Shown here: positions 24,270 through 27,329 of the stretch, piece after piece
How positions within the stretch are numbered: position 1 is the stretch's first letter
Layout: every line of letters begins with the position of its first letter
Assembly (NCBI GenBank): GCA_026705445.1
Contig: JAPPAR010000011.1
Location: 10,525-74,524, forward strand
DNA from: Candidatus Dadabacteria bacterium
GTDB taxonomy: Bacteria > Desulfobacterota_D > UBA1144 > Nemesobacterales > Nemesobacteraceae
DNA length: 64,000 nt
Direction: 5' to 3'
Position numbers and translations under genes: made by a program
The notes under the pieces: generated by a model
The model's input: only the letters and a program-made list of their open reading frames with translations
The model's database searches: none
Told to the model about the DNA's origin: nothing

Positions 24270-25105
24270 TTATGGTCTTTTGCATGTTCTTGTTTTTAAA
24301 AAATCCGAAATTTCGTTTTCCGTTTCGTAGAACGTTTGTCTTTCTTCCGTCCACTCGGAACAATCAAGGAGAATAAAGTCTCGAGAATTTCCATTACTGA
24401 ACTTTGAAGCATACTGGCTGATTCCAATCACGGTATTTAGATTCGCAAACCTGTTCCTGATAACCCCGCATGCGACTTCGAGCATTTTTTGGCGAGCTGG
24501 ACGATAACGGTTCTCGAAATCTCCGGTTTGCGGACATTTTAGCTGTAAAAATACGTACCCCTTATCTTTTTGAAGCGAGGACATGAATTTAACTTTGGGA
24601 AGCACAGAATGATCGGTTTCGGGGAAGTTGCGTACCTCTTTCCGTATTTCCTCGGATAGCAATCGACGCGTAAAGCGTGGTTCTTTTGCCATTTCGCATA
24701 TAAGATGCTGTCCTCTTTCTAAATCAATATCGTTGAGTAAAGCTCCATCAAGCATATCTTGGCATACTTGCTGTATAAATTTGTCCCAAAAATAGGAAAT
24801 CTCATTCGCTTCTTTTCTCCTTTTATAAGGTTCTGATTTGGAAAAATATTCCCAAAGTCCATCTGCCGCTATGATAGAAGAGTTCGGGTTTCCGGGATTG
24901 GTACGATATCTATTCCGACTTTCGTCATAGCTGAGAAAGTAGTGTGCGAGAAGTTCATGTTCTCCGAAATACAGAAGAGACTCGCATGTGCCGATTGTTT
25001 TTTCCTTATCGTTTATGAACTCGGCAAAATCGGAAATAGTGTCAAGTTCACGAAGAACAGTTTCAACATTAGAACTGTCTAGGATATGGACGGGATCCTC
25101 TTTTT
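24270..25105 (-). CDS. 3' exon (277 codons) of an AT-rich hypothetical gene interrupted by a group II intron
   Basis: Reading frame is open from 25103 down to the stop at 24270, with no ATG/GTG/TTG upstream of 24755 in frame. Low GC (~38%). Joins in frame to the ORF at 27101..27329 if the intron 25106..27100 is removed. The product is not confidently assignable to a family. Confidence 0.5.
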
Positions 25106-27100
25106 ATCGAGTAGGGAGGGGCGTTGCCGCGCCCTTCCCCTCGCAGACCCGAGCGTACGCGTCTAACGCACTCGGTTCCTCGCGTGCTAGTTTCACTCAT
25201 ATAGTATTTACCGGTCGCACTACCTTGACCCTTGGCAGTGGATTCTTCCTGAGTATCTCTTTCATCTTCTCCCAGTTCACTCGCCCCTTGCGGCTGCGTC
25301 GTGACAACCACTTCCGCCATACCTCTATGACCTAGTTTCGAAACTGGGCTAGCCTCTTCCTGTTCCCCGTCACCCCATAGTAGTTGCAGTGCCCGCGAAT
25401 TACCCGCCCAAGGTGCGCGGCCTGCGCGTCTATCCGCATATGGCGGTTTCCCCTGCACCACTCATTGACCGCACTTACCGCCCTTGCATACCGTCCCTTG
25501 GCCGTTACTTTTCGCAGCACTCTGTTGCCCTTCCTCGACCGCCCCCACACATGCGTGAACCCCAGGAAGTCAAACCTGTGATCTTCTCCCTTTCTGCCTG
25601 CCCGCATGTCCACATACCGTGTCTTGGCCTCATGGAGCGCTAATCCATACTTCTCCAGTCGCTTGCCAAGCACCTTGTTCACCCTCTCCCCGTCCCTTCT
25701 TTCCTCATAGAGCATTACGAAATCATCCGCAAACCTTACCAACTGGCACCGTCCCTTCATCCGCGGCTTCACCGTCTCCTCAAACCACTTGTCTATGACA
25801 TGGTGAAGTAGAGATTTGAGATCATCGGACTTATCACCCCACCCTGCGGGGTGCCTTCCGTTGACCGCCTCAACTGCCCCTCCTCTAATACTCCTGCCTT
25901 AAGCCATTTATCTATCATGCGCCTTATTACACCATCTTTGATCCGCAGATCAAGAAACTCCCGCAGCTTACCGTGGTCGATACTGTCAAAATACTTCCTT
26001 ATGTCCGCGTCTATTACCCATCTCTGCCCTTCCTTCATTACTCCCGCCCATATGGCGTCGAGCGCCCCGTGCGCCCCTCTCCCCGGCCTGAAGCCATATG
26101 AGCACTCAAGGAAGTCTCCCTCGTATATAGACTCAAGCATCATCAGTACCGCCCTCTGCGCCACCTTGTCCTCAAATGTCGGTATCCCCAGCGGCCGTTG
26201 CGTACCATCCGCCTTCGGTATGTAGTGGCGACGTACCGGCGGAGCCTTGTACTGCCCCGACTTCATGCGGCTGAGCAAATCCTCGAGATTGCTCTCAAGA
26301 TTCTCCTCATATTCCGCCGCCCCAACTCCGTCCTTCCTCGTCTGCTGATACGCTACGATCATCCATTCAAGGTCTATAAGATGATTCAGTGATGTGAACA
26401 CCCGCTCCGGGTGTTCCCTTGCCTGCTCGGCTATCCATTCCCGTTTCGTTAACGTACTCATTGCACTCTGTGTTGCCCCCTTACATTCCCCGTTAATGGC
26501 TCTACTCACGCGGTGCCCCGCTTCCCTCCACCGGGTCCCGCCGGACACGGTTCCCCGCCTTCATCAGTACTATCAGAGCACTATGACTCCCCGCATTGCT
26601 TCCCTTCGGCTTATTTGTTCGTTTTCCGGTACCACGCCGTAACCGCTTGTTAGTGTTATCGCTTCCGCGCTCCCTGTGTGCACCGGCTACCCCGCACGCA
26701 GGGCCAAGGGACATTGTTCCCCCGGATCCCCTCTGCTTCCGGGATTCGCTACGTGGACAATGCAGGGTCTCCCAGGTTCCCTGGTGAGCCTTCCCGTGGC
26801 TATGCCTCCGTTCTTTGACCCCGGACGACCCTCGGCGTCTCGTCTCTTGCGACGCTCCGGTACTGCCCCCAGTAATTGAAAAGTGAAGGCGTCATCATTG
26901 CGTTTATCGAGACTCAATAGCGGCGCTTTACCACCCGCTGTTTACGCTTCACGACACACGTTACCGTGCGCCATGCAAAACTCGCTTCCGGCTGGCTGAC
27001 TGTACCCTTTGCCGGATGGGAGTCGAACCCACTGGCTCACTATGAATGATTTCCAGCTATGCCATAGCTTTCCCTCCTTCCAGAGCTTTCCCTAGCGCAC
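25106..27100 (-). mobile_element. group II intron (~1995 nt) with an internal maturase/RT ORF. 5' GTGCG at 27100-27096 and 3' ...CGAT ending at 25106 (inferred)
   Basis: RT domains 0-7 and the X domain are clear in ORFs 25793..26548 and 25332..25772. ORF start is ~552 nt from the proposed 5' end and ORF stop ~226 nt from the 3' end, matching DI-III / DIV-ORF / DV-VI proportions. The intron begins GTGCG and ends AT. GC-rich intron sequence contrasts with the AT-rich exons. Boundaries not confirmed by a structure model. Confidence 0.6.
25332..26548 (-). pseudogene. group II intron-encoded reverse transcriptase/maturase, lacking an En domain and interrupted by a 1-nt frameshift near 25794-25800
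   Basis: RRHYIPKADGTQRPLGIPTFEDKVAQRAV, QGGVISPMISNLY | (frame shift) | LHHVIDKWFEE ... VRFADDFVML ... X-domain RGHCNYYGVTGNRKRL. The two halves are in different frames and the join falls inside the conserved NLY-LHH motif. Confidence 0.75.
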
Positions 27101-27329
27101 TCAACTTCACGCAGGAAGGTCTCTCCGCGGAGGGTTTAGCGTGCTCTCCATAAGAAATGGCAAGGCTTCCGGAATAATCCTTGCCGGAAAACTTTTTCAG
27201 GGTTTCTTCCACTCCATGGGCGACGACGAACTTATGAATTCTCGCGTTTTCCGGAACTCTGTCGTCTTTACACGGGTTCGGATAGCTCCAGAATTTCAAG
27301 AACGTGTTCTCGCAAAGCTGAGAAAGCAA
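27101..27329 (-). CDS. 5' exon (76 codons) of the intron-interrupted AT-rich gene. TTG start at 27329 is uncertain; an AGGAGG lies ~55 nt upstream
   Basis: ORF 27057..27329 reads through the proposed 5' splice site at 27100. The last 13 aa of that ORF (ALGKALEGGKAMA) would be intron-encoded read-through. Confidence 0.4.

Follow-up and report, generated by a model that had tools for sequence, protein, structure and literature searches.

Ll.LtrB, a group IIA intron with an active, endonuclease (En)-containing intron-encoded RT/maturase (IEP), interrupts a host gene that is functional. This gene is the Lactococcus lactis relaxase gene ltrB (PMC6003770). UHB.I2 is an intron of the IIB1/CL1 type with the boundaries 5'-UUGCG..GU-3' (PMC7923331). 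Further points of reference are the RmInt1-type remnants (PMC4181065) and the introns found in cyanobacterial and organellar housekeeping genes (PMC4424553).

The intron described here was analysed within a 64-kb stretch of DNA (the window). Like Ll.LtrB and similar bacterial introns inside ORFs, it lies in sense orientation within a gene located in accessory or mobile DNA, its splicing would rejoin the open reading frame, and its target is predicted to be recognised through EBS/IBS pairing. Unlike Ll.LtrB, it is IIB-like and En-less, its IEP appears dead and its host is a predicted pseudogene. UHB.I2 resembles it in the UUGCG start of its sister copies and the ..GU end of the closest of these, as well as in a IIB-type structure with EBS1 and EBS2, a likeness by description and not by sequence comparison. 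In contrast to UHB.I2, which lies in an integron cassette array, the window copy interrupts an ORF and has the ends GUGCG...AU. As in the RmInt1-type remnants, the IEP is degenerate, the context is non-essential and other mobile DNA is found nearby; in contrast to them, the window copy keeps its whole length and an apparently intact ribozyme, decay being confined to the ORF. Similar to the cyanobacterial and organellar introns, it interrupts a coding sequence and excision is needed for the ORF. However, the hosts of those introns are intact and essential and their splicing is selected, whereas the host in the window already appears non-functional.

Intron boundaries and ribozyme core

The original prediction placed a group II intron of 1995 nt, with ends at 27100 and 25106, inside a protein-coding gene and in the same orientation as this gene. 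Rfam and Pfam matches and the empty-site alleles of two related genomes (L001 and L003) bear this out. The 5' end reads GTGCG from 27100 and the 3' end ...CUACUCGAU at 25106, with both the GUGYG and AY boundary motifs present. The DNA of L001 and L003 is colinear with the window exons over the junction, with no gap. While this colinearity is by itself also compatible with a 1-nt shift (27099..25105), the choice of boundaries rests on the EBS1 register, the sister-copy homology and the Rfam end point, which agree with the proposed positions. The coordinates of all features are given in Table 1.

Table 1. Features of the intron, its host gene and the surrounding region.
Feature	Position	Strand	Description and basis
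Group II intron	25106..27100	minus	1995 nt; 5'-GUGCG ... CUACUCGAU-3'; Rfam matches, flank colinearity with empty-site alleles, sister-intron identity
Domain I-IV ribozyme core	26809..27025	minus	Rfam RF02005 (group-II-D1D4-6)
Domain V	25146..25178	minus	RF00029 alignment and alifold register; AC bulge present; loop non-GNRA
Domain VI	25106..25145	minus	RF00029 alignment; A 25112, 7 nt from 3' end, predicted as bulged branch point
EBS1 (5'-UCAAUU)	26874..26879	minus	predicted pairing with IBS1, 6/6
EBS2 (5'-ACGCA)	26899..26903	minus	predicted pairing with IBS2, 5/5, exon positions -13..-9
IBS2 (UGCGU, 27113-27109), 2-nt spacer and IBS1 (AGUUGA, 27106-27101)	27101..27113	minus	5' exon end; complementary to EBS2 and EBS1
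IEP pseudogene (RT + X)	25197..26461	minus	ATG at 26461, TGA at 25197; Pfam RVT_1 and GIIM; DNA and protein alignments
Host pseudogene 5' exon	27101..27374	minus	compared with L001 and L003 DNA; protein alignment
Host pseudogene 3' exon	24229..25105	minus	ancestral TAA at 24231-24229
2008-aa neighbour gene	27577..33603	plus	HNH + HTH_upstream_double_PIN + PIN-TPR-GreABC + permuted GreAB-C; Pfam, PADLOC
TnpB gene	37896-39062		other mobile DNA in the window

The RF02005 match reaches 115 bits, well over the model's gathering score of 49 (E=7.7e-32), with model positions 1-225 covered in full. RF00029 (domain V/VI) matches 25106..25180 on the minus strand with 33.5 bits, which falls short of the gathering score (40), although the local scan gives E=3e-4; it terminates precisely at the proposed intron 3' end. 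Over its full length the intron displays 84-85% nucleotide identity to the sister introns L004 and L005; identity to L006, a copy broken by a nested intron, is 79-87% in three pieces. The GC content is 56% for the intron, 49% and 41% for the exons and 53% for the window. The ~38% originally given for the exons was wrong.

Five ribozyme non-pairs were counted in the window copy versus seven in L004, a sister with an intact IEP. Predicted ribozyme pairing thus appears no more disturbed than in that sister, and the ribozyme portion of the intron still looks foldable. MFE folding of the window sequence by itself gave no useful signal for domains I-III and V-VI (z of about -1.6), and covariance models and comparative alignment were used instead. 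The intron is IIB-like and En-less. Class C (IIC) introns have no EBS2 and insert behind a terminator or attC hairpin; this identity was rejected because an EBS2-IBS2 pairing is present and reading the 5' exon by eye revealed no terminator-like hairpin ahead of the intron.

Target site pairing

The predicted exon pairing was compared across 14 copies, comprising the window intron and 13 sister copies at other sites. Within the same alignment columns, EBS1 and IBS1 form 6/6 pairs in 12 of the 14 copies, the remaining pair of copies having 5/6, and nine different EBS1 sequences are seen; non-cognate pairing, used as control, has a mean of 3/6. EBS1 thus covaries with the exon across the 14 copies. 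EBS2 is a variable patch in the sister copies; kept in the register of the window copy it forms 2-4/5 pairs, and visual inspection shows that some of them pair better after a shift by one base.

The intron-encoded RT/maturase

The IEP, encoded in domain IV, matches the Pfam families RVT_1 (3.3e-35) and GIIM (1.2e-5), Pfam detects no En domain in it, and the ORF stops ~40 residues past the X domain. The frame first assigned to it (25332..26548) requires correction: the start and stop are those given in Table 1, and 25332-25334 is an internal TAG. Three lesions were called from DNA alignment to the intact L004 and L005 copies and from protein alignment to seven relatives. An 18-nt deletion between 26334 and 26333 has removed the conserved DGAxG(V/I) residues, a 1-nt deletion is located between 25809 and 25808 within NLY/LHH, and CAG>TAG at 25334-25332 creates the internal stop. 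The NLY/LHH frameshift had already been noted and is present in the sequence, as one of three lesions. A Y>F change in YADD was rejected as a fourth lesion, with FADD also occurring in the intact relatives P0129 and P0156. The IEP shares 83-90% amino acid identity with the nearest IEPs of its lineage (L004, L005, L006, P0121 and P0123) and 61-68% with remoter ones. The 64-kb window contains no other RT gene.

Host gene and genomic neighbourhood

The original host gene extends from 27374 to 24229 (minus strand). An intact orthologue of 460 aa is found at a syntenic locus, with 94% nucleotide identity. Excising 25106..27100 fuses both open frames in frame via AAA, as proposed, and the fused protein aligns with homologues of 460-490 aa without a gap over the junction (ERPSCVKL/KKEDPVH versus ERPFCVELEKEDPVH). 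The homologues therefore identify the ORFs 27101..27329 and 24270..25105 as halves of one gene rather than unrelated genes. The original prediction regarded this frame preservation as rare. It follows automatically from precise reverse-splicing and retrohoming. L004 is likewise a sense, in-frame insertion, located inside a TnpB ORF whose frame is restored by excision; the Pfam TNB match in this protein (residues 288-352, profile 1-60/60) spans the predicted junction at ~residue 302. L005 is antisense within a large ORF, and no open frame of at least 80 aa crosses the L006 insertion site.

The host gene has lost its start codon, with ATA at 27374-27372 where the orthologue has ATG, and an in-frame ATG farther upstream (27404) is closed by TAA TAG (27392-27387). 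The 5' exon carries a 231-nt (77-codon) in-frame deletion, with the junction between 27258 and 27257, which takes out the conserved N-terminal core (residues 40-116). A 1-nt deletion in the A-run 24313-24311 of the 3' exon leads to a frameshift and a stop at 24272-24270. The host family is restriction-endonuclease-like, with a PD-(D/E)xK nuclease fold; E41 and D44 are invariant in the family alignment and R/K59 nearly so, while a clean conserved (D/E)xK motif is absent. With this segment deleted, the window copy lacks four invariant residues of the predicted nuclease core (E41, L42, C43 and D44). An alignment of 43 full-length members places invariant residues inside this segment, and the deleted architecture occurs in no other member examined. 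The host gene thus appears to be a pseudogene apart from the intron. The original prediction allowed for its inactivation by a splicing-deficient intron, should the IEP frameshift be real; the 231-nt deletion, the 1-nt frameshift and the loss of the ATG are instead independent of the intron. P0057, a 318-aa homologue, was considered as a second intron-split allele and rejected: a DDE transposase gene lies directly upstream, so it looks IS-truncated, and there is no RT among its called genes.

The 2008-aa gene, an HNH/PIN/GreAB-C conflict-system gene that provides context outside the intron, is transcribed divergently from the host gene. The same syntenic pair is present in L001, with 88.5% nucleotide identity over 8.1 kb.

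A lineage with unusual domain V and ends

The AGC/CGC metal-binding triad of domain V is near-universal, and the canonical intron ends are G1 and a penultimate A. Domain V of the window intron has AAC (A.G mismatch) at the normal site of the AGC triad (G.U). An alternative register restoring AGC was rejected, as the AC bulge and the CCGAG/CUCGG helix fix the register. All 15 of the further members of the lineage that were inspected, the most distant at 64% IEP identity, carry the AAC variant, and 12 of the 15 have intact IEPs. Because it is common to sister copies with intact IEPs, AAC is a lineage trait and not a sign of decay.

The ends of the relatives are similarly uniform: U1 is found in 14/14 with the 5' end read and a penultimate G in 15/15 with the 3' end read. 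Sisters L004-L006 and L016-L026 start with UUGCG, and the lineage 3' terminus is GY, being ..GU in the closest copies (L004-L006 and L016). The window copy departs from these ends by its G1 and penultimate A, i.e. the canonical GUGCG...AU. The lineage ranges from Dadabacteria-like MAGs to rhizobial plasmids; it is widespread, with many copies, and mobile to unrelated sites. Scanning metagenomes for the domain V pattern yielded a single locus, without the intron 5' half. The IEP was grouped with the UUGCG...GY lineage by amino acid identity, and its class may be CL1, E or another. Neither AAC triads nor UUGCG ends are mentioned in the literature on IIE/IIF introns (PMC3753933) or in the review PMC4424553.

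Discussion

The comparative evidence suggests, with a probability of roughly 85%, that the locus is a fossil insertion, i.e. a decayed intron copy in a decayed host gene. We propose that a mobile, En-less, IIB-like intron inserted by reverse splicing, in sense orientation, into a 460-aa PD-(D/E)xK-fold gene belonging to a conflict/defence island in a Dadabacteria-like genome. The target site would have been recognised through EBS1/IBS1 and EBS2/IBS2 base pairing, with priming presumably from a replication fork given that the IEP is without an En domain. Both partners would have decayed, presumably after insertion, the IEP through the 18-nt deletion, the frameshift and the nonsense codon, and the host through loss of 77 codons, 1 nt and the ATG. 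Given the apparently foldable ribozyme, excision of the RNA may still occur with maturase provided in trans by a sister copy, but the host protein would not be functional.

It is extremely unlikely that the host gene is live and its expression dependent on intron splicing, with the IEP frameshift either a sequencing error or a single recent inactivating event. Such a gene would be in line with the frame restored by excision, the exact match of the junction to homologues and the largely intact ribozyme helices. However, it would have to function with 77 codons missing, including the invariant E41, L42, C43 and D44, with a frameshift at 24311-24313 and no ATG, and the IEP has three lesions, one of them a substitution-type stop. 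Assembly or sequencing artefacts (e.g. long-read indels) could instead underlie the lesions, with both IEP and host gene intact in the organism. The two 1-nt deletions (in the IEP and in the host) could indeed be assembly errors, and one of them falls in the A-run 24313-24311, a typical long-read error site. In contrast, CAG>TAG, GAA/GAG>TAA/TAG and ATG>ATA are all substitutions, the two longer deletions, of 18 nt and 231 nt, are clean and keep the frame, and the neighbouring long ORFs of 2008 aa, 539 aa and 928 aa are unbroken, making this explanation very improbable. A read check for homopolymer indels would not remove the 18-nt deletion or the CAG>TAG change, as neither is an error of that kind.

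The shortened, core-less host protein might also retain some function, regulatory or as a partner of the giant conflict protein encoded beside it, being translated from the ATA or an internal start after splicing with a trans maturase from sister copies. The C-terminal frameshift and the lost conserved core point to decay, no second RT gene is found in the 64-kb window, and the architecture is unmatched in the family members examined, with invariant residues in the deleted segment of the 43-sequence alignment. We consider such a role very unlikely, despite a well-preserved ribozyme, a GGAGG located 8 nt ahead of the ATA, the in-frame nature of the 231-nt deletion and the conserved pairing of host and giant gene in L001.

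A fossil insertion has direct consequences for annotation: the ORFs 27101..27329 and 24270..25105 should be described as a single pseudogene interrupted by an intron, and both RT fragments as a single IEP pseudogene. Most bacterial group II intron copies are truncated or inactivated and located outside housekeeping genes (PMC4424553), hence the state of the window intron is ordinary. This decayed representative of a common type of mobile element adds one more case of a bacterial group II intron entering an accessory/defence-island gene and then decaying, as the view of bacterial introns as retroelements predicts. The locus offers nothing new on splicing-dependent gene expression, and its wider value lies only in the intron lineage.

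With its many copies, clean EBS1/IBS1 covariation and conserved AAC/U1/penultimate-G core, this lineage is handy natural material on the variability of the triad and of the terminal contact. It may even be a natural active family with an AAC domain V (A.G or A.A mismatch), U1 and a penultimate G, in which the double reversal to G1 and penultimate A, confined to the window copy, is natural covariation for the first-penultimate contact, implying selection on splicing in that sub-lineage. This remains a doubtful proposal, to which we give a fairly low probability. If true and undescribed, the AAC/U1/penultimate-G lineage would widen the accepted active-site consensus of group II introns.

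Intron boundaries and ribozyme domains

The minus-strand element at 25106..27100 can be recognised as a group II intron of 1995 nt, at the boundaries put forward in the original prediction. It opens with GUGCG at 27100 and closes with ...CCCUACUCGAU at 25106, matches Rfam models for both ends of the ribozyme (Table), and is exactly the extra DNA relative to two intron-free alleles. A covariance-model check had been proposed for the boundaries, and the final RF00029 position falls on 25106, with a bulged A 7 nt before the intron end. Excising the interval fuses both flanking frames in phase, as anticipated. 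An alternative boundary one base off is equally colinear and in frame; three points favour the boundary used here, namely the register of EBS1 (a domain I site pairing with the 5' exon), homology to sister copies and the position where the Rfam match ends. Unpaired ribozyme positions in the alifold consensus number 5 in the window copy and 7, 0 and 2 in the closest sister copies L004, L005 and L006, so damage is not visibly above that of the sisters. The element fits the group II definition on all structural criteria tested bar the canonical domain V triad.

Features of the intron, its relatives and its surroundings (window coordinates unless another locus is named)
Feature	Locus	Position	Strand	Remarks
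Domain I-IV core	window	26809..27025	-	Rfam group-II-D1D4-6, full model length, 115 bits, E=7.7e-32
Domain V/VI	window	25106..25180	-	RF00029 local scan, 33.5 bits vs gathering score 40, E=3e-4
EBS1 UCAAUU	window	26879-26874	-	pairs with exon AGUUGA
EBS2 ACGCA	window	26903-26899	-	pairs with exon UGCGU
Domain V with AAC	window	25146-25178
Domain V with AAC	L004	4292-4366
Domain V with AAC	L005	4301-4376
Domain V with AAC	L014	470-504
Domain V with AAC	L016-L026	directly past IEP stop
First/penultimate base	window	27100 and 25107
First/penultimate base	L004	2364/4365
First/penultimate base	L005	2364/4375
2008-aa protein gene	window	27577-33603	+	HNH, HTH_upstream_double_PIN, PIN-TPR-GreABC, permuted GreAB-C domains
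HicB-like antitoxin gene	window	33989-34813	+	near locus
TnpB, intact	window	37896-39062	+	OrfB_IS605 + Cas12f1-like TNB; near locus
tRNA gene	window	51486-51556	-	Rfam; unrelated to intron
tRNA gene	window	57471-57542	+	Rfam; unrelated to intron

The host gene

The two flanking ORFs, which could have been unrelated genes, belong to one. The fused-exon protein has 312 homologues, typically of 455-490 aa (the best, from a Candidatus Dadabacteria MAG, is 89% identical), and the alignment is gapless over the junction (window ERPSCVKL/KKEDPVH vs ERPFCVELEKEDPVH, slash at the junction). Two intron-free alleles from related genomes, L001 (94% identical at the DNA level) and L003 (87-95% in three aligned pieces), are both colinear with the window exons, the additional window DNA being precisely 27100..25106.

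Compared to L001, the host gene lacks 231 nt (junction 27258/27257). This in-frame deletion removes residues 40-116, including invariant E41, L42, C43 and D44, exactly the segment bearing the ELCD motif of the family; its ends share at most one base (A) with flanking sequence, so no repeat accounts for it. One A has been lost in the run 24313-24311, leading to a stop at 24272-24270 rather than the ancestral TAA at 24231-24229. The start, 8 nt after GGAGG, is ATA (27374-27372) where L001 has ATG, and an alternative upstream ATG is shut by TAA TAG, the corresponding L003 codons being GAA GAG. Judged by its sequence, the host gene is a pseudogene, intron present or not, and its inactivation need not be ascribed to a maturase frameshift, as had been suggested, given these separate lesions. 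The other long ORFs of the window are intact. Since several of the lesions are either substitutions or multi-codon deletions with clean ends, a wholesale sequencing artefact is unlikely.

The host gene lies head-to-head with the gene for a 2008-aa protein, whose N-terminal HNH domain is matched by PADLOC as PDC-M68A and Effector-like (1.6e-37). The head-to-head pair is retained in L001, syntenic across 8 kb, and this retention of the PD-(D/E)xK-fold host gene next to the 2008-aa gene suggests a possible two-gene conflict system. Other members of the host family are found among transposase, TIR, AAA_13, SMODS, SLATT, Mrr and DruA genes. Together with the HicB-like and TnpB genes near the locus, this marks the surroundings as an accessory conflict/defence island. 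One family copy looks truncated by an IS element, as a DDE transposase gene sits directly upstream.

The intron-encoded protein

Pfam identifies RVT_1 (3.3e-35) and GIIM, the domain of group II maturases (1.2e-5), in the intron-encoded protein (IEP), but no endonuclease (En) domain, the ORF stopping ~40 residues past the X domain. A review reports En-minus IEPs in classes C, D, E and F as well as in a minority of CL introns (PMC4424553). Lesions were called against intact relatives. The predicted maturase frameshift is present, as a 1-nt loss between 25809 and 25808, but it is not the sole lesion: 18 nt are missing between 26334 and 26333, so that the conserved RKDGAxG(V/I)DGV motif is six residues short, and TAG stands at 25334-25332 where the seven aligned relatives have a sense codon (Q in five, R or E in two; CAG is inferred, not taken from the relatives' DNA). 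FADD in place of YADD was rejected as a lesion, since two intact relatives also carry it. The 64-kb window contains no second RT gene.

Relatives and lineage

Close relatives of the intron occur at unrelated sites in three complete 'Thermodesulfobacteriota' MAG chromosomes, with L004 and L005 84-85% identical in nucleotide sequence over the full length and L006 79-87% in three aligned pieces. More distant relatives (IEP ~65-70% identical) come from metagenome assemblies, MAGs and rhizobial plasmids. The L006 copy is a twintron (3767-6116), in which a second group II intron of a different type, with an Rfam D1D4-2 core (3834-3951) and canonical domain V/VI (6041-6116), is inserted within the outer RT gene straight after the YADD codons (GAC GAT T/TC).

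Domain V reads GAACCG... opposite ...CGG(G/A)UC in the window copy and all 15 relatives. With the register set by the conserved AC bulge, the AGC/G.U triad site is occupied exactly by AAC, mismatched as A.G or A.A. Among the copies showing this are 12 whose IEPs are intact (L004, L005, L016-L025) and one on a plasmid of cultured Rhizobium etli; canonical AGC and GUGCG are found in L007, a distant D1D4-6 intron. The sister copies share unusual 5'-UUGCG...GU-3' ends with UHB.I2, a CL1/IIB1-type intron (PMC7923331). UUGCG was found in 14/14 relatives read and a 3' GGY (penultimate G) in 15/15, and these ends hold down to 64% IEP identity, again including the R. etli copy. The window copy alone combines G1 with a penultimate A while keeping AAC, a paired difference from the U1 and penultimate G of its relatives. 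These two positions reportedly contact each other, according to mutational work on ai5-gamma. This paired difference is the sole potentially noteworthy point, and lies outside the finding as stated.

Target recognition

A 14-copy alignment shows two hypervariable patches in domain I, which are predicted to be the loops of EBS2 and EBS1. With the register kept fixed, EBS1 forms 6/6 pairs with the final six bases of the exon in 12 copies and 5/6 pairs in the remaining two. Nine different EBS1 sequences are represented; non-cognate EBS1/exon combinations pair 3/6 on average. Pairing of both EBS1 and EBS2 with the 5' exon indicates IIB-type recognition, and a class C identity was rejected on the same grounds.

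Directly upstream of the insertion site (27101-27112), four substitutions in 12 nt distinguish the window from both empty alleles (GTGAAGTTGA vs GTTGAATTGG/C; E>K twice), the rest of the gene being ~94% identical. Either local drift or co-conversion by a donor allele could account for them; both versions pair equally well with EBS1.

Six copies on metagenome contigs (L020-L025), several per sample, have identical IEPs, an intron start at ~1875 and near-identical targets, each downstream of a UPF0236-family gene. Five share the 16 nt 5' flank CCATACGAGACTCGCA, from which the sixth departs by 2 nt. The pattern suggests a sub-lineage that is actively homing.

Frame preservation

The restored frame had been viewed as a special feature. 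Since reverse splicing inserts the intron precisely, excision always gives back the pre-insertion sequence, making frame preservation automatic; the L004 copy does likewise, in sense orientation and in frame within a TnpB gene, where the Pfam TNB match (residues 288-352, profile 1-60/60) spans the predicted junction at ~residue 302. The L005 copy lies antisense within an ORF of >1277 aa, and at the L006 site no open frame of at least 80 aa crosses the insertion point. According to a review, bacterial group II introns are mostly truncated or inactivated and lie outside housekeeping genes, though exceptions are known (PMC4424553). The analysis confirms the observation and partly supports its original interpretation: the window element is a full-length copy, with a dead IEP, of a common IIB-like intron lacking En, and is a fossil within a pseudogene of a defence island.
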